Counted from the stretch's first letter, positions 873 to 58,453 are shown. The stretch: DNA of 64,000 bases from Candidatus Moraniibacteriota bacterium (GCA_963743885.1 CAVURJ010000002.1:109020-173019), one strand, 5' to 3'. Numbers and translations are program-made. The notes: a model not told the origin generated them from the sequence alone.

Positions 873-2120
873 TTACGGCGCGACTTCCTTCCAGTTGAAG
901 TCGCAGTAGCGGGTACCGGTGCAGGCTTCCGGGTTGCCGCAGGTATTGGTGCCGGTGTAGGATTCGCCCATGCAGTAGGAGCCGGAGTCAGTCGAGCAGT
1001 TCGAGGCACAAAACTTCGTCACTGCCGCCGTGACCGTAGAAGTCATACTGACGAGCGGATAGGTGGCGGAGATATTTTCCGTCCGGGTCATGAATGACGG
1101 GAGTGGGTTCGGTGTGACAAGTTTTGGATTGGCTCCGGAAAGCGCGATAGCATCGCTCGGAACATTGGCTGCTGACCAGGTGACTGTTGCTGTGACGTTG
1201 GCTCCTGGAGTAGCATCTGAGCAGGCTGGCTGGTCGGTATAGCAGGCGACGAGCCGTTTCGCCGGGTCGGTATCCATCATGGAAAACGACCCGCCGTTGG
1301 CGTAGTAGATGCCACTTGAGCAGGAATTTTCGCAAATCTGGAGCGAGTGCGTGCAGGCGCTGTCTAGCGGAACAACCGCCTCGCAAGTGCCGCTGCAGCC
1401 GATAATGCCCGTGCCATGCATGCCGCATATGTTTGTGCTGGCGGTTGAGCAGGGTGTTCCATAGCCGACTGGGTTCGGCGGAGCGATGCCGGAGCATGAG
1501 CCGTCGCATTGGACGATGCCATTACTTGGATAGCCTGTCGTTAGGTCACAGGCTAAACAGTTAGGCAGTACCATTCCTCCTCCGGGGTAGTAAAGCTCGG
1601 TGCTGGAGCAGGGCGGGGCATGGAGGACGGTGAGAGGTGATGATTTCGTTCCGGAACAAACAGTCGATGGCGGGTAGGTCTGTCCGCAGGCATTGGTGGC
1701 GGTGCAGGGGTCGCCGACGCCAGGGGGATTGGCCGGAGCGCTTACGCTGCAGACAGTACCGTGGCATTCGGTTACTCCGGACTTGTTGGTGGAGCAGGGT
1801 GGCGTCGTACCACATTGATAGGTGCCGTTGTTGCAGCTGCCGCAGAGGTTGCACTGAACGCAGGGTTGGCCATAGAACGGGCTGTCATGGAGATTAGACG
1901 GACATGAGGCTGGGACGACGAAGCCACCCGTTTCTCCGGAGGGAGAGACGGCTGCGATGCCGAGCTCTGATGACGGTGACGGTTGGGAGAGCCGTTCGCG
2001 TACGAAAAATGAAGCTCCGAAGACTAGTGCTACGATGGCAGCAAAAAGCAATTTTCTGTGCTTTATGACAGAGAGTGGCAAAACGAAATGCATACGTTTC
2101 ATATTTCTTTTAGTATACAC
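873..2120 (-). CDS. Secreted cysteine-rich protein (N-terminal signal peptide/TM, about 60 Cys, Gly/Thr/Ser-rich); C-terminus ...CDFNWKEVAP
   Basis: Hydrophobic N-terminus (LLFAAIVALVFGASFF), then a low-complexity Cys/Gly/Thr-rich body. The C-terminal motif is shared with ORF 46804-47997. Confidence 0.5.
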   Translation of the reverse strand: MYTKRNMKRMHFVLPLSVIKHRKLLFAAIVALVFGASFFVRERLSQPSPSSELGIAAVSPSGETGGFVVPASCPSNLHDSPFYGQPCVQCNLCGSCNNGTYQCGTTPPCSTNKSGVTECHGTVCSVSAPANPPGVGDPCTATNACGQTYPPSTVCSGTKSSPLTVLHAPPCSSTELYYPGGGMVLPNCLACDLTTGYPSNGIVQCDGSCSGIAPPNPVGYGTPCSTASTNICGMHGTGIIGCSGTCEAVVPLDSACTHSLQICENSCSSGIYYANGGSFSMMDTDPAKRLVACYTDQPACSDATPGANVTATVTWSAANVPSDAIALSGANPKLVTPNPLPSFMTRTENISATYPLVSMTSTVTAAVTKFCASNCSTDSGSYCMGESYTGTNTCGNPEACTGTRYCDFNWKEVAP

Positions 2121-2158: not shown

Positions 2159-3817
2159 TCAAGCCGCCGGGCGCGGGTATCCCGCTATCGATGCGATACC
2201 GGCCGTGACAGCAATACCGATGGCCAAGACAATGATCCAGTCGCCGTATTGCTGGTACGGGGTCAGATACTCCGAGAGCGGGATACGCGCATAGGTAACC
2301 GATGGTCCTTGGCCGTCATCGGATGCGAGGACGCGGCCGGACGGTCCGATGATAATGGAAGGGGTCATATTGCCAGCGATGATGACTGGTCGGCTGTTTT
2401 CTGCGGCGCGGATTTTTCCGAGAGTAATCGTCTGACGGCCAAGTGTTTTTGACCCGTGGAAGATCGAATGTGAAGAGAGGTTGGCGATGATATCGGGTGC
2501 AGGTATCCCGTTTTCACGCAAGAGGGTGGGGGAGAAGATCTCTGAACAGAGAAGCGGGCTAATCCTGAGCGGTCCGTATGTGCCGTATCGTGCCGTCTCG
2601 AGCCGCTTGAGTGATCTTGTCTCGAGGAAGTTTCGGACGATATCGTCCCGGCCGGCCAGTGTGAGCGGCAAGAGCGTGATCCAAGGAATGTATTCGCCGT
2701 TCGGGATGGGCACTTGTTTTGTAGCGGAAGCGGTCAGGTCGGAGAGAGTATTGTAGAAGAAGGCCCGGGAATCCGGTCCGGCACCGTCGGAGATGTGGCC
2801 GGAATCGATGACGAGATGCTCTCCCGGTCCGAGCATGTCGGAGAAATAGCGTTGCCGGTATCCCGCATCGATGCTGGCGATGAATTGTGAATCTTCTGGC
2901 AGAATGAGAAGCTCCGGCGATTGGTCATCACTTTTGATCCTAGAAAGTAGATTACGGAGCGCTGCCGCTTTGCGGATGTCGGCGTCGGGATCATCTGAGG
3001 CGCGTTCGGAAAAATCAGTGTGAACGATGGCGGCGAGAGGCCCTTGGGGAGTAGGAATGCGCTGGGTTGTCGTCCGGAAAAAGAGAAAGACGGTCACGCT
3101 GGACGTGAACATGAGTAGCACGATGAGACCGACTACGGCAAGCAAGGGCCTGTTCGCTGAATATATCAGACGCAACCGCCCTGGTGGCAGACCGCGCAAG
3201 AAGCGCCATACCATGAAGAGTGTAGCATTGATGAAAACAGCGAGAAAGCTGAGAAGGTAGACGCCGCCGAGCGGAGCAAGCAGCAAGAGTGGTGACCAGG
3301 CGAGGGCGTTGCCGAGCACGCCGAATGTCCAGTGGCCGCCGATGATTGAATGCGGTCCGGCATAGAGTATCGAGAAAGCATATGTGTGTACGTATTCGAA
3401 GACGGTCCATGATGCGGCAGCGAAGAGGATGAAAAGGATCGGTTTGCGGATACGGAGGGCGGAAAAACCGACGGTCCAGAGTCCGGAAAAAAGCCCTGCA
3501 AGCAGCGCTCCTGCTACCCAGACCATAGCGATGAGCGAGATGCTCAGGATGGGCGATCTGATACCGGCCCAGTCAAGCGGAAGCGCTTCGAAGAACCAGA
3601 CGATGTTGATGCTGGAGAAGATGGTGCCGAACAGGAATCCGGCGAAAAACGCGCTTCTCCCGATGACGTGCCGGTCATAGATCGTGGAGAGCAGCGGTAT
3701 GAATCCGACCAGCATGAGTGGCCAGCCATATTGTGGGAAACAGTAGCCGGCACCCATGAGTATCGCGCTAGCGAGAACAGGCAGAAGGTATGATTGGATT
3801 TTTTTATCGGATTTCAT
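2159..3817 (-). CDS. lnt: Apolipoprotein N-acyltransferase (Lnt)-like: polytopic N-terminal membrane domain plus C-terminal CN-hydrolase (nitrilase-fold) domain
   Basis: About 6 N-terminal TM helices and a C-terminal TM. Nitrilase-superfamily region with the 'LLCSEIF' catalytic-Cys motif and the 'LILPEDS' Glu motif. Length 552 aa matches Lnt topology. Confidence 0.6.
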   Translation of the reverse strand: MKSDKKIQSYLLPVLASAILMGAGYCFPQYGWPLMLVGFIPLLSTIYDRHVIGRSAFFAGFLFGTIFSSINIVWFFEALPLDWAGIRSPILSISLIAMVWVAGALLAGLFSGLWTVGFSALRIRKPILFILFAAASWTVFEYVHTYAFSILYAGPHSIIGGHWTFGVLGNALAWSPLLLLAPLGGVYLLSFLAVFINATLFMVWRFLRGLPPGRLRLIYSANRPLLAVVGLIVLLMFTSSVTVFLFFRTTTQRIPTPQGPLAAIVHTDFSERASDDPDADIRKAAALRNLLSRIKSDDQSPELLILPEDSQFIASIDAGYRQRYFSDMLGPGEHLVIDSGHISDGAGPDSRAFFYNTLSDLTASATKQVPIPNGEYIPWITLLPLTLAGRDDIVRNFLETRSLKRLETARYGTYGPLRISPLLCSEIFSPTLLRENGIPAPDIIANLSSHSIFHGSKTLGRQTITLGKIRAAENSRPVIIAGNMTPSIIIGPSGRVLASDDGQGPSVTYARIPLSEYLTPYQQYGDWIIVLAIGIAVTAGIASIAGYPRPAA

Positions 3818-4791: not shown

Positions 4792-5664
4792 ATGCATACC
4801 ATCCTCACATTTTTCGATCGGGTGAACGATATGCGGATCAATGTGATTCTGAACTATTTCTTATTAGTGAGCTTTTTCGTCTTTAAGAGCCAGAGTCAGG
4901 TCTCTTCCGAAGATAGGATCGCGTTCGCTGCCATAGCGACTGCGTTCGTCGGATTTTCCTATCTATTCAACAGGTATACAGATTATCATTACGATATCGT
5001 CGTCGACGGAACGGAGATAAAGCTCGCTCGCAGGACCTATCTTTGGATATCATTCGGTTATTTCGCTGTGGGCAGCCTGCTTCTTTTGGAAAATCCGGAA
5101 TATTTCCCAGTGCTCATCATCGGGGCTATTTTTGGCATTCCATATTCTGTCCCGACTATCCTCAAAGAGCCTTTCAAGAATTATCTTTTTCTGAAGACTA
5201 TCTATTCCTCCGGATCGAAGACCGCTGTCATTTTCTATTGGCTCCAATGCTTCACGACCTCATCGCTTTCGGAGAGCATAGCGATGTCTTTCATATTCTT
5301 CTGCTCGCATACCGTCTTCGGTATTCTCTGGGATGTGAGGGATATCGAGGCGGACAGGGTCGGTCATGTGCGGACCATCCCAAATGTCTATGGAGTCGGA
5401 GCTGCTCTGACTGTCGCTACGGCCGCCAATATCACCGGATTTCTCATCGATATGTCCGTTTTCGATACGACGGTGCGCGATCTCGCATTCTTCGGATTGG
5501 CTGGGGTGCTCATACTGCTCACGGAATTCGTCCGGCATCCGAGATTTTTCCACACGATGATATATTGCAATATTATTACCAAGCTGTTTTTCGTGAATGA
5601 TCGGGAGTTTGGTATCCTGATCGGCGCAGCCAGGCTCTTTTTCGGGAAAATACTTCCGTTCTAG
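4792..5664 (+). CDS. UbiA-family aromatic/isoprenoid prenyltransferase-like membrane protein
   Basis: 290 aa polytopic. First Asp-rich motif 'NRYTDYHYDIVVD' (NxxxDxxxD-like). Second motif 'WDVRDIEADRVGHVRTIP' matches the UbiA D-x-x-D-x-E-x-D-R...T-(L/I)-P signature. Confidence 0.55.
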   Translation: MHTILTFFDRVNDMRINVILNYFLLVSFFVFKSQSQVSSEDRIAFAAIATAFVGFSYLFNRYTDYHYDIVVDGTEIKLARRTYLWISFGYFAVGSLLLLENPEYFPVLIIGAIFGIPYSVPTILKEPFKNYLFLKTIYSSGSKTAVIFYWLQCFTTSSLSESIAMSFIFFCSHTVFGILWDVRDIEADRVGHVRTIPNVYGVGAALTVATAANITGFLIDMSVFDTTVRDLAFFGLAGVLILLTEFVRHPRFFHTMIYCNIITKLFFVNDREFGILIGAARLFFGKILPF

Positions 5665-6596
5665 TCGGATTTTTCCTGGGGGTCGTTGTTTTCATCCGTA
5701 TCGACCAGTGAGAGATTATGCCGGATGACCGAGCGCATCTCTTCCAATCCGCGCGCGTAGATGCCAGGGTCATTGCCAGGGTATGAGGCACCCCAGCTCT
5801 CCGGAGTCATATCCGATACTTCGCGCCAGGCGGATTCGAAAGCGGTCTTCGCTCCCGTCTTGTCTCCGAGATTGAGCAGCGCCGTGCCATAGATGGTATG
5901 GAGCCATGGATTGACCTCGGCGTGTCGCAGGCCAGCCGCAGCCGTATCGCGGGTCTTCTCGTAGTCTCCCTGGCGGAAATAGACCCAGGCGAGGTCGTTG
6001 TAGCCGGCCCAGTTGAAATCATCGCGCTTGATGAATTCCTTGAATCCCCATTCGGCTTCCGGATAGTTCTCCTGGTAGCCGTTGATGAGTCCGTACATGT
6101 AGTAGCCCTGCTTGAGGTCGGGTGCATAGCGGATAGCTTCTTTGATCTCGAAAATTGCTTCGCGGAAGCGGCTCTGGATGAAGTAGGTGCGGCCGAGCTG
6201 GTAGTGTGCTTCCGGGAAGGCATAGCGCTGCTGGAGCGCCCGAATGTAGTATTTCTGGGCTGTTTCGATATCGTAGCGCCCGGCGCCGCCGAAATGATGG
6301 TCACCCATCTCGAAGAGCATAGTGGCATCTTCCGCGGAGAGCGTGAGGGGGATTGTTTCGAGCTTGAGATATTTCCAGAGGATGCCGCCAATCGCGTTGT
6401 GGTAGTGAAAGACGGAGGCGATGCTGACGGATAGGATGAGGACATAAAGGGCGATCATAGCGATGCGCCGCGGCGCGATGGCTATGATGTCCGGTCGGGG
6501 GAATGGCATATAGGAATGCGAGAAAGATACTATGGATGGACGGAGACATTTCCATCGTAGCATATTTTTCCGATGGCGTATCAGTTGTGCTATCAT
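5661..6596 (-). CDS. TPR-repeat protein with N-terminal membrane anchor
   Basis: Hydrophobic N-terminal segment then repeated 34-aa-like TPR helices (YYIRALQQ..., YQLGRTYF..., W-L-G-Y pattern). The true start is probably internal (MPFPRP... or MIALYVL...). Confidence 0.5.
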   Translation of the reverse strand: MIAQLIRHRKNMLRWKCLRPSIVSFSHSYMPFPRPDIIAIAPRRIAMIALYVLILSVSIASVFHYHNAIGGILWKYLKLETIPLTLSAEDATMLFEMGDHHFGGAGRYDIETAQKYYIRALQQRYAFPEAHYQLGRTYFIQSRFREAIFEIKEAIRYAPDLKQGYYMYGLINGYQENYPEAEWGFKEFIKRDDFNWAGYNDLAWVYFRQGDYEKTRDTAAAGLRHAEVNPWLHTIYGTALLNLGDKTGAKTAFESAWREVSDMTPESWGASYPGNDPGIYARGLEEMRSVIRHNLSLVDTDENNDPQEKSD

Positions 6597-6625
6597 TGGG
6601 CATATATGAAGATATCGATCCGGTT

Positions 6626-8137
6626 ATGATGGAGTTTCAGATCAGGACATATAGGAAAAGCATGGAGGATGTGCCGCAGGATATCCGGGATGCTTTCCGT
6701 ACGCCGATCGTACTGACGATGGTGCATAAGAAGAATACTACCGCGTTCTTCCCGTCTTTTGTTATCATCGATTTCACCTGCGGAGAGCTGACGCATATCC
6801 GGAGCTATCTTCCGGAGAATGTAGTGCTGAAGAAGGCTCATCCGGAGAATGCGTCGATCGTGACGCGGCCGCACATGGTGAATCCCCATTGCATCATCGA
6901 GGTTCATCCCGGAAAGGATTTCTATGCATTCGTGGATGGAGGGAACTATTTTTTGCATGTCGACTATGTGACCGGAAAGATGCGGACATATTTCGCGAAG
7001 GATGTGCTGGCTGATGGAGACTTGGGGAATTTCGGATGGTTCTCGGCGACGGCGTATAAGGATGATGACGATCCACGCTTCTTCCACTTCGCCGTCGAGA
7101 GCCGGCAAGAAGAGAAGCGATATCTCGATTTTTGTCGGATGAGTCTGGATCGCTCCGATGCCAGGCGAGTGTTCCGGTCGGATATGGCGGATTTCTTTCC
7201 GGTACCGCATGCGGTCAGGAAATTCCGTGGGCGCATCTTCAATTCCAGGTTTGAGGGGGGGCGGTTCCGGTATCGTGAGTCTGGCAAGATGTTTGATTCC
7301 ATTGAGGCGCTTTCCGAACATATCTACCGTGGTCTTCATCGAGAGTTCTGTGCTCTTTCCGGTGGAGAAATGTCCGAGAGGCGATTTGAAGATGACGTCA
7401 CATCTTTTTATCCGGAGACCGATTTCAGTTCGGATTTTCAGAGGTTCTGTGAGGATCGCGGAGGGAATATCGTCGGGATAGGCCGTCGTGATAACCGGTA
7501 TGTATTTGAGGCTTTGCCAGGGATATTCTTGGCAATCAATCTGGGGACCGGATCGCTTGAACGGTATGAGACGACGTTCTGCTCCCCGGCGCATTTTGAG
7601 GCGGATGAACGCGATGACGCGCTTTATGTCTCATCGCATAATTTCCTTCGTTTCGGTAAAAAGATGCTGTTTCTTGGTCCGGCCGCTCTCGATAAATTCG
7701 TGATCCGAGACGGGGGAGTGAAAAGGGTCGGATCGTTTTCCGATCCGTCCGGGTATCGTTTCACGTCGCATAAAATCTTCTATCATCGGGGACATTCGTA
7801 TATATGCACTATCGGCCACCCGAACCGATTGTTCATCATCGATGCTGAGACGATGGAGTTGGTGTATCATGTTGATCTTTTTCGGGATTCGCTGTCGAGT
7901 ATTTCGGATATCGGAGAGTTCGTCAATCAGTATGACGGACCATTTCTTTCAGCAGTTGAAGTATCGGATGATGGTGAGTATATTATTGTGATTGGTAGTA
8001 GTTCGATCTATTTCTTTAGTGTCATAGGTCGCCGAATCATTTATGAGATGCCAATTTTTCAAGTGTCCGATACTGAGTATGATAAGTCGTATTGGAAATT
8101 TGTGATGCGGACAGTGCATATGAACCGTCTCACTTAG
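6626..8137 (+). CDS. Hypothetical protein, first gene of the putative YcaO/SagB RiPP operon
   Basis: Long ORF with no recognisable motif. The track start (6503) overlaps the divergent gene, so the first in-frame ATG (about 6626) is preferred. Ends 6 nt before the next ORF. Confidence 0.4.
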   Translation: MMEFQIRTYRKSMEDVPQDIRDAFRTPIVLTMVHKKNTTAFFPSFVIIDFTCGELTHIRSYLPENVVLKKAHPENASIVTRPHMVNPHCIIEVHPGKDFYAFVDGGNYFLHVDYVTGKMRTYFAKDVLADGDLGNFGWFSATAYKDDDDPRFFHFAVESRQEEKRYLDFCRMSLDRSDARRVFRSDMADFFPVPHAVRKFRGRIFNSRFEGGRFRYRESGKMFDSIEALSEHIYRGLHREFCALSGGEMSERRFEDDVTSFYPETDFSSDFQRFCEDRGGNIVGIGRRDNRYVFEALPGIFLAINLGTGSLERYETTFCSPAHFEADERDDALYVSSHNFLRFGKKMLFLGPAALDKFVIRDGGVKRVGSFSDPSGYRFTSHKIFYHRGHSYICTIGHPNRLFIIDAETMELVYHVDLFRDSLSSISDIGEFVNQYDGPFLSAVEVSDDGEYIIVIGSSSIYFFSVIGRRIIYEMPIFQVSDTEYDKSYWKFVMRTVHMNRLT

Positions 8138-8143
8138 CAGAGT

Positions 8144-9226
8144 ATGGATGTGATTACACGGAATATCTCATTCCGGTCTTATGAGGAGCGACATGCGTGT
8201 GTAACGGGTATACGGGATATCCGTGAATTTGTCCTGTATCTTGAGTCATTGGAACGCGGAGGGGCCAGAATCGTTTCGGGGGTGTATGTTTCCGGATCGG
8301 CCGATGACGCGGCGCAGCGGATGCTTCGCCGCTATTCGATTTTGTCTCTGATGCATTCGATAGAGCAAGGATGTGCGTCCGATGCAGCGAATGCGTCGAT
8401 AGTGGCGGTTTCTGGGGATATCCGCGTCGAGCATATCCAGTCGGAAGACGGGCATGCGCTGGGAACGTGTGTCGAGGCCGGCGGGTATTTGCACCTTTCA
8501 CTTGCCGGGTTATCAGAAGGAACGGCTCTGGCAGGAGAGGTATCCTTTTCGGATGAGATTGCGGAGGAATATGTGAGGAATGGGCGGTGGCTGCATGGAT
8601 ACGGATTTTCATCGGAGCACGTCTGCCGTTATTGGAACTATATGGCCGATATCGCGTCGCATTATGCTGATTTTAATCGGGCTCGGGACGGGTATTTCGT
8701 AGCGCAAGGCGTGAAGGCATATCCGGCTGCGACCGGTATCGAAGCGGTCTTCCCGGGGGAGCGGAGGATCTCGATCGGACTTGAGGCGTATCGGCCGATT
8801 GCGGATGGATCGGTCATCATCGCTCCAGTCGTTTCTGATATGCAGTGCGAGGCGAGCATGTATGGACCGAAGTTCTCACGCGCGACGAGCGTCGTATTCC
8901 CGAAAGACGGCATTGAGAAGCTGTACGTATCCGGAACATCGAATATCGGGAAAACAGGACAGTCTACGAAGGGGCAGGACGTTCATTCTGATATTTCCTA
9001 TACCATGTCCTGTATCGGACACCTCTTATCGAAACGAGGTATGTCGCTTGAGGATATCGTTTCGGCACGCGCATACTTTCATGATGCGGCGGCATATCAG
9101 GCGTTCCTTAGTCTCTATCTCTCCGAGGGCTGGACATTTCCATATATACCTGTCTTTTCTTCGGTTTGTCGGAAAGAGCTTGTTTTCGAGATGGAGTGCC
9201 TTGCGGCTCATCCCTTTGGCACATAG
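8144..9226 (+). CDS. Hypothetical protein in putative RiPP operon; C-terminal region weakly RidA/YjgF-like
   Basis: 360 aa, tightly packed between operon genes. The C-terminal '...IVSARAYFHDAAAYQAFLSLYLSEGWTFPYIPVFSSVCRKELVFEMECLA' resembles the YjgF/RidA C-terminal signature. Low certainty. Confidence 0.35.
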   Translation: MDVITRNISFRSYEERHACVTGIRDIREFVLYLESLERGGARIVSGVYVSGSADDAAQRMLRRYSILSLMHSIEQGCASDAANASIVAVSGDIRVEHIQSEDGHALGTCVEAGGYLHLSLAGLSEGTALAGEVSFSDEIAEEYVRNGRWLHGYGFSSEHVCRYWNYMADIASHYADFNRARDGYFVAQGVKAYPAATGIEAVFPGERRISIGLEAYRPIADGSVIIAPVVSDMQCEASMYGPKFSRATSVVFPKDGIEKLYVSGTSNIGKTGQSTKGQDVHSDISYTMSCIGHLLSKRGMSLEDIVSARAYFHDAAAYQAFLSLYLSEGWTFPYIPVFSSVCRKELVFEMECLAAHPFGT

Positions 9227-9271
9227 CAAAGGATGGTGATATAGTGGAGATACCCGTATGTTTGTTTGATT

Positions 9272-23833: not shown

Positions 23834-24814
23834 GGATATTACGAGCCAAAAAGACGTATGACATACGGATTTCTCGGCTCATACAGATACTGCATGAACA
23901 TCAACCGGACAATCTAAACGTCAGCGTATTGTGAAGAGATGATAGTCTCTCCGCGAGGAGAGATTTTCATTTCCGCATAAGCGCCTTAACAATTCATGTC
24001 TTTTCTGAGATGGTCATGTTTCGCCTGGCAGCGGAAAGCGAACGGGTTATCTTGGAATAGTCTAAATGATGTAAGGTCAAGCTCATGAGATCTTCGCAGA
24101 TCTCATGAACAAGCAATTCAACCGATAGTGCAGTATGCTGTTGCGCGGACTGATGCGGACTGGAACGGACTGATGCGGAATTTCTGCATAGGTCTGTGTA
24201 AAGTCAGTATTGGTCAGCACATTGAGCGTTCTTCACTGTCAACCGATTGTCCGTGAGTACTTTCATCATAGCGTCGCAAGACGCCGTGATGGAATATTTG
24301 CGGACAATGGAATCAAGAAGGTTACTTAACGCATGGTGTGGATGCCTTGACTGAAGCAAGCGATGAAGGACGTAGGAGGCTGCGATAAGCCTCGGGGAGC
24401 TGTCAAGCAAGCTTTGATCCGGGGATTTCCGAATGGGATAACCCTTCCGATCTTCATGACGGAAAACCGTATCTGAATACATAGGGTACCGAAGCAAACC
24501 CTGGGAATTGAAACATCTTAGTACCAGGAGGAAAAGAAATCAATAGAGATTCCGTAAGTAGTGGCGAGCGAACGCGGAACAGCCTAAACCACCGAGCTTG
24601 CTCGAGTGGGGTTGCAGGGCTTGTGGACTCGATTGATCGGGGTCACTGCAGTGTTGCTAGCAGAACGTTCTGGAAAGAACGACCATAGAGGGTAATAGTC
24701 CCGTATGCGAAAACGATACTGCACTGATGCACAAGTACCTAAGTAGGGCGGGACCGGAGAAATCCCGTTTGAATCTGGGAGCACTAACTTCCAAGGCTAA
24801 ATATTGCTTCAGAT

Positions 24815-24851
<37 letters not shown>

Positions 24852-26453
24852 CATCCCGATAAGGGAGGTGAAATAGATCTGAAACCCTATGCTAACAAAG
24901 AGTCGGAGCCGTCGCATCACACTGCGTGTGATGCTAAATTCAAAATGCAAATTTCAAAAAATGTAAAACTTTGGTTCTTGCTGAGCAAGTCGGACAATTT
25001 ATACTGAATAATCTAAAAATCCGTAAGCGTAGCGAACATAATAATTTTGATTTTTGATTTTTAAATTTTGATTTTAGCGAACATCACGCATAGCGTGATG
25101 CGAGCGGTGACGGCGTGCTTTTTGCAGAACGATCCAACGAGTTAGTTCTACGCGGCTGTCTAAGGGATGACGAATTCCGGAGACATAGTGAAAGCGAGCC
25201 TGAATAGGGCGAATATGGTCGCGTGGACTAGACCCGAAGCCAGGCGAGCTACATATGAGCAGGGTGAAGCGCGGGTAAAACCACGAGGAGGCCCGAACCC
25301 ACTCAGCCGTGCAACACTAGGGGATGACTTGTGAGTAGGGGAGAAATTCCAATCGAGCTTGGCAATAGCTGGTTCTCTCCGAAATAGCTTGAGGGCTAGC
25401 GTCTTGTAAATTATACCCGAGAGGTAGAGCTACTGGATGAGAATTCGCGGTTCGCCGTAGGCTTTTCAACCAAACTCCGAATACTCGAGGTACGTATCCA
25501 AGGCAGTCAGTACTCCGGGGCTAAGCTCGGAGCACAAAAGGGAAACAGCCCAGATCGTCAGTCTAAGGTCCCTAAATCTATGTTAAGTGGGAAAGGAAGT
25601 GAAGTTTCTTAGACACCTAGGAGGTTGGCTTAGAAGCAGCCATCCTTTAAAGAGTGCGTAACAGCTCACTAGTCTAGAGACTTCGCGCCGAAAATGTAAC
25701 GGGGCTAAACATAGTACCGAAGCTACGGATTTTATCGCAAGATAAAGTGGTAGGAGAGCGTTCCGTATGCGCTGAAGCGGAAGGGTGACCAACCGTGGAG
25801 CGTATGGAAGTGAGAATGTTGGAATGAGTAACCGCAATGAGGGTGAGAGCCCCTCACACCGAAAGTCTAAGGTTTCCTGGGCAATGGTGATCATCCCAGG
25901 GTTAGTCGGTCCTAAGGCGAGGCCGAAAGGCGTAGTCGATGGACATCAGGTTAATATTCCTGAACTATTTGTATATTCGATGGAGAGACGCATCTCTGTA
26001 TCTCTTGCCCCTTATTGGATTGGGGTATGCGTATTGAGGACGTTGTACAGGCAAATCCGCACAGACATAGTCCAATGGATGGTTGGACGACGTCTGTAGC
26101 AATACCGGCGAAGAACGAAGTGGAGCAGGGTGCCAGGAAAATCTTCTAAGGTTAGTATACAGATATCCGTACCGCAAACCGACACAGGTGGACTGGGCGA
26201 GTAGCCTAAGGTGAACGGGAGAGCCTTCGTTAAGGAACTCGGCAAAAAAGCTAGGCGTAAGTTCGCAATATGCCTTGCCATCCGCAAGGGTGGCCGCAGC
26301 GAAAGTTTCCCAAGCGACTGTTTACCAAAAACACAGCTCTCTGCAAACCCGTAAGGGGAAGTATAGGGGGTGACACCTGACCAGTGCTGGAACGTTAACG
26401 GGAGCGGTGCACGCCAATCCCCGAAGCGCCAGTGAACGTCGGCGATAACTATA

Positions 26454-27247
26454 GAACGATTGTAGTTATAAAATTTGGCCAAATGCTGGAAACTCCGAAT
26501 GAACCGATATGTACTCGCCTGAAATAAATGGCAGTGAAAATCAGTATCAGTGAGAGTATCGCGGGATACGAGTCGGACAATCAGCAGGAAAGACTCTTAT
26601 GCAAGATGACCAATGGTTGAAACAAGATTCCACCTGAAGTGGGCCACTATTTAGCTGGTTTCGCAGATGGGGAAGGAAGTTTCATAGTCAGTTTACGACA
26701 GCGACCGTGATCATACACTTGGTTGGCAAGTCGTCCTCACTTTCAATGTAGCTCAAAAGGAGAGCTATATCCTTTCGCAATTCAAAAGATATTTGGGTTG
26801 TGGAAGACTACAAGAAAGGAAAGATGGCGTGTTCTACTACGTGTGTGCCAATCCGCAATCGATTCAGGAGAAAGTAATTCCTTTTTTCAAGCGATGTCGA
26901 ATTTCGATCGCAGAGAAAAAAGAAAAATTTCGCTGTTTTCTGTCGTATTGTAGAGAAAGTTTTCAACAAAGAGCATCTGACTGGAAGCCGGGCTGAATGA
27001 AATCATCAGGTTACGTGAAGAGCTCAATGACGGTCGGGGACGCAGGCGAAAGTTTGCGCTCACTGATTATGAAAACTTTCAAAAAGAGAATCCTCAGAGA
27101 CTATACGCCAAACCACGGGCCTTCCGGAAGGAAAGCCATGCTGGATGATATAGTCCGATCTCATGGGTAACTATGAGTTTGATCTCCTGCTATCAATAGA
27201 GATCGAAAAGGTAAAGAAGCGAATTCTTTCTGAACACAGGTGCACGA
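26454..27247 (+). mobile_element. Group I intron inserted in 23S rRNA (E. coli position about 1917 region) carrying a LAGLIDADG homing-endonuclease ORF
   Basis: About 790-nt insertion between the conserved 'AACTATA' and 'TCGTCCTAAGGTAGCGAAATTCC'. Contains the HE ORF. Confidence 0.7.
26639..26996 (+). pseudogene. LAGLIDADG (I-CreI-like) homing endonuclease, interrupted by a 1-nt frameshift at about 26708
   Basis: 'YLAGFADGEGSFIVSLRQRP*' then in the +1 frame 'DHTLGWQVVLTFNVAQKESYILSQFKRYLGCGRLQERKDGVFYYVCANPQSIQEKVIPFFK...', which is collinear with I-CreI (LAGFVDGDGSIIAQIKP...LSLTFQVTQK...). Possible GTG start at 26639. Confidence 0.7.
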
Positions 27248-27650
27248 ATCGTCCTAAGGTAGCGAAATTCCTTGGCAGGTAAGTTCTGACCCGCATCAAA
27301 GGCGTAACGACTTGAAAACTGTCTCAACGAAGAGCTCGGTGAAATTGCAATGACGGTAAAGATGCCGTCGACCTGCAGCAAGACGAAAAGACCCCGTGGA
27401 GCTTTACTACAACTTGGTATTGACTTTGAGTTTTTGTTGCCGAGCATAGGTGGGAGACTTTGAAGCGCCGCTTTGGTCGGGTGGAGTCATCAGTGTAATA
27501 CCACCCTGTATGATTTTAAACGCTAACCCTGGACTGTTATGAGTAACGAAACTTATACGAACCAGCAAATGCAATATGATCAGTTATTCTGATTGTATTC
27601 TGCGCGCTCATAAATTTCTCGAGTTTCATACCAGTCCGGGGACAGTGCCT

Positions 27651-27686
<36 letters not shown>

Positions 27687-27847
27687 GGCAACGGAGGCGT
27701 TTACAAAGGTTGGCTAGGTCCGGATGGAAATCGGACCGATAGTGCAAAAGCATAAGCCAGCTTTACTGAGAGACCCATCAGTCGATCAGTTACGAAAGTA
27801 GAATTTAGTGAACCGACCATCGCTTATAGGAGCGTGGAAGATCATCA

Positions 27848-27880
<33 letters not shown>

Positions 27881-27906
27881 CCTCCCAAGAGTCCACATCG
27901 ACGGAG

Positions 27907-27966
<60 letters not shown>

Positions 27967-28018
27967 TGGCTGTTCGCCAATTAAAGCGGTACGCGAGCTG
28001 GGTTCAAACCGTACAGTA

Positions 28019-28490
28019 GTTATAAAGTGAAAAGTTGAAGGTTTTTAAAGTGTATTCTTGCTTTAGAGACTTGATAACTTGACGGACTTTTGACTCTTGT
28101 ACAGTTTGAACCCCGAGGTGGTTTGCGACATCAAATGGGTTTTTCGTCTTTGAAAAAGTCCTGACATAACAGTCAGGTCCCGACTATCATCATGTTGGGA
28201 ATAGATAACCAATCACATCACGGCGGTACTTTCTTTGTAGAAAGTAACAAGCTGACTTATATCGGTGGAGCCCTTCACGAAACGAAGGGTCATACCGAGG
28301 GAAGAAGATGGTTGAAAGTTTTTAAAGTTCATAAAGTTGAAAGTAAATACGAATTCGTGTTCACTTGATAAACTTTTTAACTTTATACTTGATAAACTAA
28401 ATTCGCCTGTAGAGACTAAACGTCAGCAGTCTTCTGAGCAATCAGGAGATGAAGCTATAGTCCAATGCACTTGGTAACAAGTGGTAACAT
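28019..28490 (+). other. About 470-nt ORF-less insertion in 23S rRNA domain V (E. coli about 2590s), candidate second intron
   Basis: It interrupts the conserved 'GCGAGCTGGGTTCAAAC...GCGTGAGACAGGTTGGTTTCCTATCTGC', is AT-rich, and starts with a local hairpin (GGTTCAAACCGTACAG...CTGTACAGTTTGAACC). Confidence 0.4.
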
Positions 28491-28634
28491 GCGTGAGACA
28501 GGTTGGTTTCCTATCTGCTGTGGGCGTGTGTGGCTTGAGAGAACTCTTCCTTAGTACGAGAGGACCGGGAAGAACGAACCTCTGGTGTATCTGCTGTTCC
28601 GCCAGGAGCATCGCAGAGTGGCTATGTTCGGGCA

Positions 28635-28667
<33 letters not shown>

Positions 28668-28997
28668 GAGCTCAAGATAAGGCCATACCCCTCACTTGAT
28701 TTGCGTAGCATTCATATGCAAGCGATCAGTGAGCTCTTCTCTCGAAATCAGAGAGTGGATAACTGGTGATTCGTGGTAACCATGTAGGTTATAACGCAAA
28801 TCAAGTGAGGGGGAATTTCCTAGAAGATGACTAGGTTGATAGGCTACAGGTGGAAGCGTGGCGACATGTTAAGCCAAGTAGTACTAATAAATTCAAACGA
28901 CTTTCTTCGTTCCAGTACGGTTGGCAGTGAAGAATGCTTGAAAAGGGGAGACAGTATATCATTTCAGAGGACAAAGACAATTTTGGAGAGGAGTGTT

Positions 28998-29108
28998 CCC
29001 GGTGTTTCTAGCGATAGGGCCACACCTGTTCCCATACCGAACACAGCCGTTAAGCCTATCAGCGCCGATGGTAGCCATCAAGGCAAGAGTAGGTCAGTGC
29101 CGGGAACA
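28998..29108 (+). rRNA. rrf: 5S rRNA
   Basis: '...CCCATACCGAACACAGCCGTTAAGCC...AGCGCCGATGGTAGCC...GTAGGTCAGTGCCGGGAA' matches the 5S conserved core. It lies about 80 nt after the 23S. Confidence 0.8.
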
Positions 29109-30275: not shown

Positions 30276-30347
30276 GGATAGGTGTTAGGTTGTAGGGTAT
30301 AGGGTGTAGTCGGAAGGGTAATTATCCCTCCGTTTTCTAACCCCTAA

Positions 30348-30372
30348 CCCCTAACCCCTAACCCCCCCCCTA
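30348..30372. repeat. (TAACCCC)4 telomere-like C-rich repeat, 9 nt upstream of the ftsW/rodA start (G-rich on the minus strand)
   Basis: Direct read: ctaacccctaacccctaacccctaacccccccc. Confidence 0.8.
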
Positions 30373-44622: not shown

Positions 44623-44867
44623 GATTTTCTGAGGCTTGCATTGCAGGCCTCTTTTCTTTGCTCTGGTTGAGTCCTGTTGGATTCCGTCCTATCTTTTTGT
44701 ATATCACTATTTTTATGAGGTCGTTCAAAAATAGTGATACGGTGAGGATGTGATGTGGGTTGTGAAAGGTGTTGCTTGATTGACCAGGATTGTTTTTTCT
44801 GCCAGAATGGCATGTATTCGATGGGGTTTTCTATACCCTATATCCTAACTCCTAAACCCCACCTATC

Positions 44868-45978: not shown

Positions 45979-46527
45979 GTGTTAGATACTCGGAAAAACA
46001 AAAAATATTTTCGTATGCGCAGATTGTTCTTTGCTACAGCGATTGCTCTCGTGCTCTTTTCAAATGTCGCTGTTTTTGTGTATTTTTATCATTCTCTCTG
46101 GTATAAATCGGAGAGCGCCATTGTATTATCAAAACCAGTTTCGGAACAACTGATTGTTTCTGCTCCAGTTTCCAATGAAGAACCAATTAAGACTGATTTT
46201 GGTATCAAGTTGCCAGATGGTTTCCCGTCTGATATCCCCATTGAACAAGGAGTAGGTATCAGGCAGGGCTACGCGCTTGATTATGGGATAAAGAAGCAAT
46301 ATACGGTAGTGTTCTTATCGCTGAAGACCGTTACTGAGAATCGTTTGCTTTATGAAGCTTATCTTGATAAGAACGGTTGGGGTATCTTGAATAAACAAGA
46401 TGATGATGTTTTGGTAGCGCTTTATGCTACCAAGGCGCAAGATGATATCAGTGTGACCGTTATCGGTGATATGGATGGCATGTCGACTGAATCACAAGTG
46501 AGCATTAGCATCTTGAAAAAGATATGA
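45979..46527 (+). CDS. Hypothetical membrane-anchored protein
   Basis: N-terminal TM (LFFATAIALVLFSNVAVFVYFY), no motif. Confidence 0.35.
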   Translation: MLDTRKNKKYFRMRRLFFATAIALVLFSNVAVFVYFYHSLWYKSESAIVLSKPVSEQLIVSAPVSNEEPIKTDFGIKLPDGFPSDIPIEQGVGIRQGYALDYGIKKQYTVVFLSLKTVTENRLLYEAYLDKNGWGILNKQDDDVLVALYATKAQDDISVTVIGDMDGMSTESQVSISILKKI

Positions 46528-46799
46528 ATACGAAATTAACTGCATCGGTTTTTGTCTTCTTCCTCGGCATGATTTTTTTCGTCGGTGCTGGTAGAGTGGA
46601 GGCAATGACGGTTGGTATTTATCCGCTCGGAAATCCGTCCCTTCCTCTTATGGGGACGTTTACTATAGACACCGATAAGGCTTCGTATGAACCCGGTGAA
46701 AATATAACAATTACCGGGTCTTTTTCTGTGACTTTCCAAATAGGCCTGGCTTTTCCCTGGAGAATGTCCGCAAAATTAAAATACAGAACCCGCTCCTAG
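46524..46799 (+). CDS. Small secreted protein (signal peptide); possibly the N-terminal fragment of a frameshifted gene continuing in ORF 46804-47997
   Basis: Signal peptide 'MNTKLTASVFVFFLGMIFFVGAGRVEA'. Stop lies 4 nt before the next ATG in another frame. Confidence 0.35.
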   Translation: MNTKLTASVFVFFLGMIFFVGAGRVEAMTVGIYPLGNPSLPLMGTFTIDTDKASYEPGENITITGSFSVTFQIGLAFPWRMSAKLKYRTRS

Positions 46800-46803
46800 C
46801 ATA

Positions 46804-47997
46804 TGGAAACCGAATCCCTACAGGCTTCTGATCTCTACGGATTGGAGCGGTTCTGGAGGAAGGACGGTTGTTGCGCCTGCTACGCCAGGGGAATATGTGG
46901 TTAATGGCTTTATCACAGGAGGTGCCTTCGGTGGATATAGTGGGAGCATAACCCTTCCGATACGGGTGGCCAATCCTATTGTTGGCACCATTGATGTTTC
47001 CTCGAATATTCCGACTTCTTGGACTATTGCCGGCCCGACTACTCTTTCTGGATCGGGGATAACCGTCTCGTATACGGATCAGCCTGTCGGTACCTATACT
47101 ATCATCTGGAACCCTGTTTCTGGTTATGTTACACCAGTCTCACAATCTCTTTCTAACGTGAGCAATGGCGATACGATCTCTTTCATCGGAAACTATATCT
47201 CCGTATCGGGTGTCGATTTGATCGCTGGGCCAGTCACGCCCATTACGGCCATAGCCAACTCCTCTACGATCTTCTCATCGACGATAAGTAATATCGGTAT
47301 GGGCTCGACGGGTATTAGTTCCTTGAGTTTTTTTCAGGTTGCTTCCGGGCCTGGAGGTACTGGCACGGTCACTGATCTTCCGTCTTCGATTGTGCCAGTT
47401 CTCGGTACTGGAGGAAGCGCTCCTGTATCCGTCTCCCACACTTTCTCCTTGGCTGGGACGTATTCTATGCGCGCCTGCGCCGATGCGATTCTATCACTAT
47501 CATTGGGCGGCGGTGTCATAACTGAGACGAATGAGGAAAATAATTGTGGCCCTTGGACGGATATCACTGTCTTAAACGCTCCTCCCAGCATCTCTTTCGC
47601 GATTAATGGCTCTACTGGCCCGCTCCTTCTTTTCAAGGGTGATACAGAGATTATTAATTGGACCGTCTCTGATGCCACGTCTTGTGTAGCCATCTCATCC
47701 GACAAATGGTCTGGATCGAAAGATCCCGCGAGTGGCACTGATACGCAGTCTGCAGCCACGACCTCGGATTTCACGCTCGAATGCACCGGCCCCGGAGGCA
47801 CTGCCTCCGAGACGGTCCATGCGGACGTTTCCTGTGCTCCGAGTACTGGCACCTGGAGAGACTGTGACTGTGCCACGGAGACTAAATCTCGTACACGCAT
47901 AGACGCTTCATGCTCCACATGGATGGAGACTCAGGAATGTACCACTGATGAGAAGAATGCCTGCCGCGACTTCAATTGGAGAGAGGTGAGGCCGTAG
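46804..47997 (+). CDS. Thr/Ser/Gly-rich secreted-type protein with Cys-rich C-terminal domain ending ...CRDFNWREVRP
   Basis: The frame is open from the ATG at about 46804 (the track lists a GTG at 46897). The C-terminal tail motif is shared with ORF 873-2120. No signal peptide of its own. Confidence 0.45.
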   Translation, partial: WKPNPYRLLISTDWSGSGGRTVVAPATPGEYVVNGFITGGAFGGYSGSITLPIRVANPIVGTIDVSSNIPTSWTIAGPTTLSGSGITVSYTDQPVGTYTIIWNPVSGYVTPVSQSLSNVSNGDTISFIGNYISVSGVDLIAGPVTPITAIANSSTIFSSTISNIGMGSTGISSLSFFQVASGPGGTGTVTDLPSSIVPVLGTGGSAPVSVSHTFSLAGTYSMRACADAILSLSLGGGVITETNEENNCGPWTDITVLNAPPSISFAINGSTGPLLLFKGDTEIINWTVSDATSCVAISSDKWSGSKDPASGTDTQSAATTSDFTLECTGPGGTASETVHADVSCAPSTGTWRDCDCATETKSRTRIDASCSTWMETQECTTDEKNACRDFNWREVRP

Positions 47998-48566: not shown

Positions 48567-48708
48567 TTATTACCAAGCGTAGCGAGTGAAACGAGAGTTT
48601 ACTCTCGTTTCCGAACGGAGCGCAGGCCCGCTTCGACGGAGCTTCAGCGAGGCGAGTAAAATCGGGTTGAATACCCCGCGGCTTGCCCTGGGGTAAATAC
48701 CCGTTATT
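48567..48708. repeat. Copy B of intergenic repeat family, with hairpin AAACGAGAG-ttta-CTCTCGTTT
   Basis: See copies A, C and D. The hairpin arm sequence differs from copy C but pairing is preserved. Confidence 0.6.
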
Positions 48709-48785
48709 TTTCCGGTTTTGAGCCAAAGAGATGTCTGATGCTACACCTTTTTGGCTTGGTTTGTGATGGGGTTGACGGCTGGTTT

Positions 48786-52570: not shown

Positions 52571-52617
52571 GATTTTTTCCGTATCTCCTGATTTTTCGTC
52601 TTTCTATACCCTATCTA

Positions 52618-54217
52618 CTAAACCCTATACCCTGTCCTATGACTTGAATTCATCATGCCGGAGTTCGCGGCGGATATGGGATCGGGCGCCGGAAGTCCTG
52701 ACGAATCCGAGCCAGTCGCGGCTCGGCCGTTTTTTTCTTTGACGGTCAGGATCTCGATGACCTGGGCATTCTGGATACGATAGTCGAGCGGGACCATCTT
52801 ACCGTCCGCTTTGGCGCCGACGGCGCGGTTGCCTATCTCACTGTGGATGGCATAGGCGAAGTCGATCGGCGTGGCGTCTTCCGGCAGGTCGATGATGTCG
52901 CCTTTCGGTGTGAAAGCGAAGATATGGTTCTTGAAGAATTCGATCTTGAGTACCTTCCATGAATTCTTCGTCGTCGCGGCCGATCTCTTTCTGCCATTCT
53001 CGGAGTTGGCTGACCCAGGCGAGATCCTTGGGAAGCGTGTGGGTATGACGGCCTCTTCTGAAGAGTGAGCGCCAGCCGCTCTTGGCATCCTCAGCGTACA
53101 TCCAGTGGGCTGCGATGCCGTATTCGGCCTCGTCATGCATCTTCTGGGTACGAATCTGGATCTCGAGAACGCGGCCGTCCGGTCCGAAGACAGTGGTATG
53201 GAGCGATTGGTAGCCGTTCGGCTTAGGGAGAGAGATGTAATCCTTGATGCGTCCGACCATGGGACGGTATTCACGGTGGATGATGCCGAGTGCTTCGTAG
53301 CAGTCGGCGATCTCTGGAACGATGATACGAATGGCGATCAGATCGTAGATGCGCGTGATATCCATGTCGTGCGTTCGAAGCTTCTGGTAGAGGCGGTAGA
53401 GGCCTTTGGTGCGTCCGGAAATCCCGATGGTCCGCACTTTCTCTTTCTCGAGCGTTTTTTGGAAAAGCCGTACGGCACGCTCCATGTACTCCTTGCCTTC
53501 ATGAAGATAGGTTTCTTCGATCTTTCTGGTTTCTCGATAGCGTTCCGGGTCGAGGTGGAGGAAGCAGAGGTCTTCGAGTTCGCCTTTGATCTCGCCGATG
53601 CCGAGGCGGTTGGCAATCGGAGCGAAGACTTCCATCGTTTCGCGGGCGATACGTTCGCGTTTCTCGGGACGCAGATGCTCGAGGGTGCGCATGTTATGCA
53701 GGCGGTCGGCCAGCTTGATGATGACGACACGGATGTCCTGCGCCATCGCCATGAACATTTTTCGGAGATTTTCGAGAAAGTACTCTTCTTTGGAACCGCG
53801 GAGTTTGATTTTTCCGAGCTTGGTGATGCCGTCGACGAGGTAGGCAGTTTCCGGGCCGAAGCGCTTCTCGATGTCTTGGAGGGTCACTTCGGTGTCTTCC
53901 GGGACGTCATGGAGCAGCCCGGCGGCGATAGTGTGCTCGTCCATGCCGATCTCGGCGAGGATTTCGGCGACATGGAGCGAGTGGGTAATGTAGTCTTCGC
54001 CGGATTTCCGTTTCTGCCCATGATGGGCTTCTTCAGCGAAGCGGTAGGCCTCCGCGAGGAACTTCTGGTCGTCGCTCGTGAGGGGGTGGACGGCCTTTTT
54101 GAGGATATCTTCGATGGTCGGTGCCGGCATGAGTGGTGTTTCCATAGTGATAGTATAAGCGTTGTCATGGAACATGACAACGCTTGGAATCGCGTCGCTC
54201 GAAAAGAACGAAAACAA
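52618..54217 (-). pseudogene. rel: Bifunctional (p)ppGpp synthetase/hydrolase Rel/SpoT, split by a 1-nt frameshift (HD plus synthetase domains in ORF 52838-54217; TGS domain in ORF 52618-53274)
   Basis: HD motif 'HDVPEDT'. Synthetase 'RTKGLYRLYQKLRTHDMDITRIYDLIAIRIIV'. TGS 'IFAFTPKGDIIDLPEDATPIDFAYAIHSEIGNRAVGAKADGKMVPLDYRIQNAQVIEIL' in a different frame. The junction is near 52945-52975. This could be a sequencing error or a genuine pseudogene. Confidence 0.7.
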
Positions 54218-58341: not shown

Positions 58342-58453
58342 TTATTACCAAACGAAGTGAGTGAAACGAAAGTGTACTTTCGTTTTCGAGCGAGTGCAGG
58401 TAAAATCGGGTCAAATGCCCCGCGGCTTGCCCTGGGGTGAATACCCGTTATTG
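58342..58453. repeat. Copy C of intergenic repeat family, with hairpin AAACGAAAGT-gt-ACTTTCGTTT
   Basis: See copy B. Compensatory substitutions maintain the stem. Confidence 0.6.

Follow-up and report, generated by a model that had tools for sequence, protein, structure and literature searches.

A near-invariant C-terminal peptide on otherwise unrelated exported proteins of Moranbacteria, a possible recognition or anchoring tag

Two genes in a 64,000-nucleotide stretch of DNA from Candidatus Moraniibacteriota bacterium (GCA_963743885.1 CAVURJ010000002.1:109020-173019), referred to below as the window, encode otherwise dissimilar exported proteins that end in the same short peptide, and this tail, with the consensus C-D-[FY]-N-W-[KR]-E-V-[AST]-P, is conserved in their orthologues and in hundreds of other proteins. 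It is appended after a folded domain, is unstructured in models, is under selection at the protein level and is common to proteins that are otherwise unrelated. We put at about one half the probability that the tail is a lineage-specific tag, exposed at the C-terminus of exported surface proteins of Moranbacteria whatever their passengers, that serves for recognition or anchoring and would be read in trans. Bacteria of the Candidate Phyla Radiation (CPR, or Patescibacteria) account for much of bacterial diversity and are host-attached, and to our knowledge the mechanism by which they display proteins at their surface is essentially unknown.

The first-pass annotation of this DNA had reported that two secreted proteins share a C-terminal motif, and both open reading frames (ORFs) were confirmed. 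Gene 1 (873-2102, minus strand) encodes a 409-residue exported, Cys-rich surface protein identical to the public protein P0001, and its tail, C-D-F-N-W-K-E-V-A-P (876-905, minus), is followed directly by the stop codon (873-875), the ORF of 873-2120 closing with ...GTRYCDFNWKEVAP. Gene 2 (46524-47997, plus strand) encodes a 490-residue exported protein, P0037, and its tail, C-R-D-F-N-W-R-E-V-R-P (47962-47994, plus), likewise lies directly before the stop codon (47995-47997), at the end of an ORF that closes with ...NACRDFNWREVRP. The native tail peptide is given here as TRYCDFNWKEVAP. BLASTP yields a single alignment between the two proteins, over their last nine residues, seven of which are identical, and in a six-frame scan of the window the sequence D-F-N-W-[KR]-E occurs only at these two ORF ends.

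The motif is not confined to these two proteins, as was confirmed by two kinds of search. A DNA pattern scan with D[FY]NW.EV.P, back-translated without a stop codon and run over one genome per species (at least 80 loci), gave at least 86 matches. Among the matches listed, 59 are terminal, lying 0-2 residues from a stop codon, and all 59 come from Moraniibacteriota/Patescibacteria bins, several of them mislabelled in the records; they span 38 assemblies, 16 of which hold two or three. About 25 of the matches listed are internal and belong to other phyla, a number near our own chance estimate of about 17 together with one unrelated family of Burkholderiales lipoproteins. The second search, which was exhaustive, used a profile of the last 46 residues (Cys-rich module plus tail) and matched 283 clusters (E<=0.001, clusters at 50% identity). 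The tail or a close variant lies no more than three residues from the end in about 130 of the 138 newly inspected clusters, the proteins of which range from 55 to 1698 amino acids; variants include CDMNWKEV, CDQNWKEV and ...KEVGQ, and five matches are false positives caused by Cys repeats. Homologues of gene 1 that differ widely in their N-terminal architecture share the ending C[DN][FY]NW[KIV]E[VI]AP. No model in Pfam or NCBIfam matches the tail, and a full-text search of the literature found no description of the motif or of an equivalent CPR signal. In the Burkholderiales family (L019, L041, L042, L055, L069, L073, L074 and L079), a near-identical nonapeptide, PD[YF]NWREV[RK]P, is internal and stands directly after the lipobox Cys (LAAC[AS]PDYNWREVRP).

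Across 78 unique tails the information content is 3.3-4.3 bits at every one of the ten positions (residue counts C 69, D 77, Y/F 78, N 77, W 78, K 67 or R 7, E 78, V 77, A 69 and P 78), the C.G[TS][RK].C module before the tail is less conserved than the tail itself, and the sequence farther upstream is variable. The protein ends exactly at the Pro in 71 of 101 tails and the remainder carry one or two extra residues, with EVAP being sometimes extended by E, Q, F, Y, GN, GQ or GE. In the DNA encoding the tail, synonymous codons differ at every degenerate position, such that 60 tails comprise 53 distinct versions, and the tails of genes 1 and 2 themselves differ synonymously (AAC/AAT, GAA/GAG and GTC/GTG). 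No repeat of the 3' end of either gene is present in the window. Since synonymous codons vary and the 3' ends are not repeated, selection must act on the peptide and not on a DNA element, and an origin by chance or as a DNA-level repeat was rejected on these grounds. A variable region of a diversity-generating retroelement, or an element of the initiation-of-mutagenic-homing type, was also rejected, as there is no template-like repeat and the conservation is at the protein level across genomes. Several paralogues occur per genome, and the tail variants within one genome are significantly concordant.

The carriers of the tail are predominantly exported proteins. An N-terminal hydrophobic signal peptide or anchor is present in 57 of the 65 full-length carriers, and several of the others have recognizable, lower-scoring ones. 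Only two of 86 carriers have a hydrophobic stretch in their last 60 residues, in both cases upstream of the tail, and in none of the 86 is the tail followed by a transmembrane helix or a basic cluster. Most carriers have no Pfam match at all, and the domains that are recognized in the passengers are various types known from extracellular adhesins (Big_2, CARDB, TSP_1, PKD, Flg_new, which is the Listeria-Bacteroides repeat, LCCL, Sushi and beta-propeller). In most carriers the tail is preceded by a six-Cys module of about 35 residues, which is absent in gene 2 and others; the tail follows ends without the module in L006, L020, L027, L031, L049 and gene 2, and these ends include TSP1-like repeats (gene 2, L006, L031 and P0023), CTCSGVDYNW, CYPPDYNW and SQIRDFNW. 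The slot between YchF and GroEL is occupied by a tail protein in the window, in L013 and in L036, with differing passengers. Several tail proteins, such as ...ESAFATSGGGGGGGGSCC, have an oligoglycine run (6-10 Gly) immediately after the predicted signal peptide or lipobox (L012, L030, L002, P0013 and P0014), which recalls oligoglycine acceptor ends.

The proteins of the window had been described as low in complexity, a description that does not survive modeling, as both are composed of Cys-rich modules and Ig-like or CARDB domains for which AlphaFold2 gives a predicted local distance difference test (pLDDT) score above 90. The gene 1 protein consists of an N-terminal signal anchor, a juxtamembrane 'PASC' module (SSELGIAAVSPSGETGGFVVPASCPSNLHD; 1884-1973, minus) that is common to many CPR relatives with other tails, Cys-rich repeats, an Ig-like beta-sandwich (residues 253-362; 1017-1346, minus) whose relatives match Pfam Big_2, a six-Cys C-terminal module (C..C...C....CG....C.GTR.C; 906-1013, minus) of the kind found before the tail in most members of the family, and the tail. 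The pLDDT exceeds 90 for the Ig-like domain and the six-Cys module, and averages 61 over the last nine residues, which have no secondary structure. A PDB sequence search gave no useful match, and fold searches gave only weak matches to Ig-like, Rib, cadherin and S-layer structures. Translation most likely starts at 2102 (MKRMH...) and not at the GTG at 2120 where the ORF had been opened, because the identical 409-residue P0001 begins with MKRMH. Just past the gene, between convergent genes, is a 15-bp GC-rich hairpin (815-847) that resembles a terminator.

The bounds assigned to gene 2 also required revision, from 46804-47997 to 46524-47997. In this assembly the gene is split by one extra A in a run of four (46778-46781, plus, by comparison with P0037) into an ORF of 91 residues with the signal peptide (46524-46799) and, in another frame, an ORF of 397 residues (46804-47997). 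Deleting one A from the run restores exactly the 490-residue P0037, and the gene is intact in an independent assembly. Either the split is an error of sequencing or assembly, or the run is a homopolymer that makes a surface-protein gene phase-variable. The intact protein consists of a signal peptide, a CARDB domain (residues 231-341 of P0037; 47215-47547, plus) seen in the structure model and matched by PF07705 at 26.3 and 25.7 bits against a gathering cut-off of 22.7, a second Ig-like domain, a TSP1-like Cys region and the tail. The likeness to TSP1 (W..C.C...RTR..C) was recognized by eye, as the region before the tail has no match to Pfam TSP_1, a model that is matched by the relative P0039 and by two tail proteins. 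AlphaFold2 assigns the gene 2 tail a pLDDT below 50 and no secondary structure, and its folded domains more than 90.

In other CPR lineages, homologues of both passenger families that do not have the exact tail end in other short peptides, namely PRFQEL, PKWQEK, PEFEEF, PRWQEF, TWIEF, PAFKEQ, TWREVTP, FLFIEY, KYQQF, GFQEF, SYREVAPW, PNFQEF and TFREVNP, and two tandem paralogues in L087 have the endings PLPRFQEL and PIPQWNEK. The pattern [FWY].[EQ].{1,4}$ fits 16 of 29 relatives without the exact tail, about 20 of which are CPR-like, compared with 16 of 218 background ORFs (7%). The decapeptide is apparently the version found in Moranbacteria of a more general CPR tail, [FWY]-x-E-x(1-4)-COOH. 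One tail on unrelated passengers within a lineage, and another tail on the same passengers elsewhere, would be expected of a tag that is read in trans.

The genes that adjoin the tail genes point to possible machinery. In the window, gene 1 is preceded by a gene for a membrane-anchored TPR protein (5661-6596, minus) of a family found directly upstream of gene 1 relatives, by UbiA, by a 276-residue membrane protein and, directly upstream of it, by a divergent Lnt-family acyltransferase with LNT_N and CN_hydrolase domains (2159-3817, minus). The order membrane TPR protein, Lnt-like protein, tail protein recurs as an operon tightly packed on one strand in L081/L082 (P0004), L083 (P0003), L154 (P0002) and L152 (P0024), and the Lnt-like gene precedes the tail gene in L153 (P0005). 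Other orders occur with differing passengers, in L030 (Lnt, TPR, tail) and L002 (TPR, tail, tail, one further ORF, Lnt). Among the 80 immediate neighbors of tail genes, TPR is the commonest Pfam family (six members), and a TPR gene adjoins the tail gene in 8 of 54 genome loci and in five further relatives. The gene lgt occurs twice among the same neighbors, in L010 and L018, and in both the start of lgt and the stop of the tail gene overlap. The TPR proteins belong to a single family, with 37-78% identity and an N-terminal transmembrane segment, and the TPR domain is predicted to face outward because basic residues precede that segment (the positive-inside rule). Five orthologues of the Lnt-like protein keep the Glu-Lys-Cys triad (LPED, K..P.PNGEY.P and CSEIF); the protein of the window scores 90.9 bits against TIGR00546, which is under the equivalog cut-off of 132.9. 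P0030 is a natural fusion in which this TPR domain is combined with a PASC-like module, Cys repeats and the tail PRWQEF. A universally linked partner was rejected, as no gene neighbors all the tail genes and the best cluster of neighbors covers only 6 of 54 loci, and a metagenome scan with the Lnt alignment found only distant, generic Lnt genes, none of them near tail ORFs. The proximity to pilin-like genes that was remarked upon in the first-pass annotation did not hold up, as pilin-like ORFs of the type IV secretion system kind lie beside tail genes at only 3 of 55 loci and the recurrent neighbors are instead the membrane TPR protein and the Lnt-like acyltransferase; linkage to pilins was accordingly rejected.

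Several further observations concern these neighborhoods. The PASC module, with the consensus [SE]E[LV]x[IF]....SP.G...G..[IV]PASC[PE]S..H, follows the signal anchor whatever the C-terminal tail, has no Pfam or NCBIfam match, is always paired with an upstream TPR gene, and is present in gene 1, P0002-P0008, P0012, P0015, P0016, P0020, P0023, P0024, P0026, P0029, P0036, P0047 and P0050. In L087 (4498-7980) and L088, the genes stand in the order DsbA-like thioredoxin, TPR protein, two tandem Cys-rich proteins of the PASC family, which fits disulfide formation in exported proteins, and an S41/PDZ C-terminal processing peptidase is encoded 1.8 kb downstream of the tandem genes. The TPR protein of the window contains DDFNWAGYND (6009-6020, minus), the only other DFNW in the window; it is kept in close orthologues only (L081 and L083), is replaced by ESWAGHND in L004 and SSWAGHND in L068, and is probably a coincidence.

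In the mechanism that we favor, the tail would be read in trans by one common factor on the outer face of the membrane, which would retain, anchor or hand over the adhesin-like proteins and so give the tail the role of a sorting signal that requires neither a transmembrane helix nor a basic segment. The leading candidate for the reader would be the membrane-anchored extracytoplasmic TPR protein, which might act together with the divergent Lnt-family Cys acyltransferase, the two being encoded in the conserved operon with tail proteins that include gene 1. TPR domains are classical readers of C-terminal peptides, as in the recognition of the EEVD of Hsp70/Hsp90 by Hop and CHIP and of PTS1 by Pex5, and by analogy these would be the nearest functional counterparts of the tail. 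Both are, like the tail, extreme C-terminal acidic-hydrophobic peptides on unrelated proteins (K-E-V-A-P can be compared with E-E-V-D), and TPR proteins are the commonest neighbors here, with one case of fusion. EEVD and PTS1 are, however, cytosolic and eukaryotic, whereas the present system is bacterial, its TPR domain is predicted to be extracytoplasmic and up to three residues may follow the motif. A more specific proposal is that the tail is the substrate tag of a CPR anchoring pathway that replaces sortase, in which the outward-facing TPR protein would capture the substrate and the Lnt-family Cys enzyme would lipidate or attach it, with the [FWY]-x-E-x tails serving the same pathway across Patescibacteria; taken as a whole, this proposal is improbable.

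A number of observations count against recognition in trans. In about 88% of cases the tail directly adjoins the six-Cys module and could therefore be a structural cap, the low pLDDT of the tail in the models is weak evidence, especially where alignments are shallow, and the 0-3 residues past the Pro argue against recognition that strictly depends on the free carboxylate. The concordance of tail variants within a genome is confounded by recent paralogy and may reflect nothing else. As to the machinery, the TPR/Lnt-like pair is a candidate, and about 85% of tail genes have neither a TPR nor an Lnt neighbor. TPR adjacency is strongest for the PASC-module family and is kept where the tails differ (L084-86, with PEFEEF in L084, and L087/88, with PRFQEL), so the TPR protein may be the partner of the N-terminal PASC module rather than of the tail, and the Lnt-like enzyme could be an ordinary housekeeping lipoprotein N-acyltransferase.

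Of the rival explanations, the one that we take most seriously, and still regard as unlikely, is that the tail is the last element of a disulfide-knotted C-terminal domain, with the Trp packed on the cystines, that is conserved for folding and stability and has no reader. This would account for the Cys at position -10 in 69 of 78 unique tails, most of which follow a C.G[TS][RK].C module, for the occurrence of module and tail together in 283 clusters, and for a pLDDT of 61, which is not that of a fully disordered segment. It does not account for the presence of the tail on unrelated ends (TSP1-like, CYPPDYNW, SQIRDFNW and CSGVDYNW), for the greater conservation of the tail than of the module, for the absence of predicted secondary structure in the tail or for the different short tails of the same passengers in other lineages. 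The earlier suggestion of a shared terminal domain holds for the module of about 35 residues and six Cys in most carriers and fails for gene 2 and the others that lack it. The CTCK domains of mucins and von Willebrand factor are similarly small, Cys-rich modules that form the very C-terminus of large adhesive proteins outside the cell, but there is no match in sequence or fold, and the conserved part here is a Cys-free tail after the module. The C-terminal domain of Type IX secretion is likewise a C-terminal element on diverse secreted adhesins and enzymes of one phylum, and is removed or used for surface attachment. That domain is, in contrast, a beta-sandwich of 70-100 residues in diderm Bacteroidota that passes through an outer-membrane translocon, whereas the tail is a 10-residue element in CPR bacteria, which are regarded as monoderm; no Pfam or NCBIfam match to the Type IX domain was found, and the shared element is 10 residues long, or about 45 with the Cys module.

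The first-pass annotation had also likened the tail to sorting signals such as LPXTG and PEP-CTERM, and here the modular behavior stood, in that a near-invariant C-terminal peptide is found on exported proteins with unrelated passengers and on paralogues, and the likeness did not, as nothing follows the motif. Sortase and exosortase signals (LPXTG, PEP-CTERM, GlyGly-CTERM, PGF-CTERM and MYXO-CTERM) are also short, passenger-independent and lineage-specific C-terminal signatures on surface proteins with signal peptides, with several paralogues per genome. In those signals the motif is followed by a transmembrane helix and a basic segment, whereas the tail, at 9-10 residues, ends the protein, and it fails their definition because nothing hydrophobic or basic comes after the motif. 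A classical tripartite signal of the sortase, exosortase or archaeosortase type would suit the C-terminal position, the signal peptides and the several paralogues per genome, but is contradicted by the absent segments and can be given next to no credence. Among the genes covered, the sortase- or exosortase-like enzyme that had been looked to as a co-occurring partner did not appear, as no gene for a sortase, exosortase, rhombosortase or other rhomboid-type enzyme, or CPBP protease is present in the 64-kb window or among the best 25 of the 68 families listed for the 80 neighbors, and NCBIfam sorting-domain models match none of 77 tail proteins (E<=0.01) and neither of the two window proteins (E<=1). 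Literature searches on CPR sorting signals and on Lnt in CPR returned nothing relevant.

A covalent processing site, at which an envelope enzyme (the Lnt-family Cys enzyme or an unlinked transpeptidase) cuts within or behind the tail and passes the protein on to lipid or cell wall in the manner of sortase or rhombosortase, is improbable. The Lnt-like gene, with its triad intact, adjoins tail genes of two passenger families in three gene orders, the start of lgt overlaps the stop of the tail gene in two loci, and a variable 0-3 residues after the Pro would suit a leaving group. The enzyme shares LNT_N, CN_hydrolase and the conserved E-K-C triad with the Lnt pathway and differs from it in its score below the TIGR00546 cut-off, and in the tail proteins no canonical lipobox stands at the proper distance from the signal peptide; nor is Lnt known to be encoded in operons with TPR and surface proteins. 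Against such processing, we know of no CN-hydrolase that cleaves peptide bonds, the Lnt-like protein may, at 90.9 bits, be an ordinary Lnt, and relatives with other tails (L084 and L087) have no Lnt neighbor. In addition, about 12% of tails have R, I, V or Q in place of the Lys at -5, which therefore cannot be a universal acyl acceptor. PDZ domains also read C-terminal peptides, and the S41 peptidase with a PDZ domain near the tandem PASC genes of L087/L088 raises the prospect of a quality-control or maturation tail bound by a PDZ protease of the Ctp/S41 or HtrA type. That peptidase was seen in a single lineage, which has a different tail, no PDZ or S41 gene is present in the window or in the neighbor census (best 25 of 68 families listed), and invariance on hundreds of stable surface proteins is not what one would expect of a degradation tag, so we consider this very unlikely. 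We give slightly less weight still to the idea that the tail is the adhesive end by which these episymbionts touch a host cell or bind a ligand. The carriers are adhesin-like (Ig-like, CARDB, TSP1 and PKD domains) and the tail is exposed and flexible, but an invariant peptide in at least 38 assemblies from many habitats, on hypervariable passengers, is the opposite of host-specific adhesion.

If the tail is indeed a tag that is read in trans, it is a sequence handle with which the surface proteome of Moranbacteria, and possibly, through the [FWY]-x-E-x tails, of other CPR bacteria, can be listed. It would also represent a signal for sorting or anchoring that does without a transmembrane segment, and it would point to candidate machinery in the TPR protein and the Lnt-like enzyme. 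Should it be merely a structural cap, it is still a new and well-defined protein family signature that is absent from Pfam and NCBIfam.

Beside the TPR, Lnt and tail genes of the window is a gene cluster (6503-11613) that resembles those for ribosomally synthesized and post-translationally modified peptides (RiPPs) of the thiazole/oxazole-modified microcin (TOMM) type, with a SagD/YcaO cyclodehydratase (10015-11613), a SagB-type dehydrogenase (9266-10018), an FkbO/RidA-like protein and a 544-residue protein. The co-location recurs in L152 (1170-3530) and in L084-86 (L084:10325-12969). No small RiPP precursor was found in the window, and L084 has its own precursor-like Gly/Cys-rich ORF of 73 residues that ends in GGGTGGGGGGGSTASCTGSCC. 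With such a precursor-like ORF present in L084, modification of the Cys-rich gene 1 protein by the YcaO/SagB cluster was judged unlikely despite the recurrent co-location.

Housekeeping genes in the window (GroEL, YchF, PilB, SpoT and TopA) are 70-90% identical to those of Moraniibacteriota bins, which identifies the organism as a Moranbacterium (Patescibacteria/CPR). The 23S rRNA gene (24315-28909) measures 4.6 kb against a model of 2.9 kb, with insertions of about 1.7 kb that are likely introns, and is followed by the 5S rRNA gene (28998-29105); the window contains no 16S gene. A pilin-associated protein with PilX_N and beta-propeller-like features (54337-55632) contains five to six tandem repeats of 123 nucleotides (41 residues) at 54806-55554. 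Two kinds of intergenic element may be regulatory or promoter elements. One, of 56 nucleotides, occurs twice with 91% identity, upstream of groEL (48656-48711) and beside dprA (58400-58455), and the other, a 32-nucleotide motif of the TTTCTATACCCTA type, occurs three times upstream of genes (30334-30365, 44828-44859 and 52601-52632).

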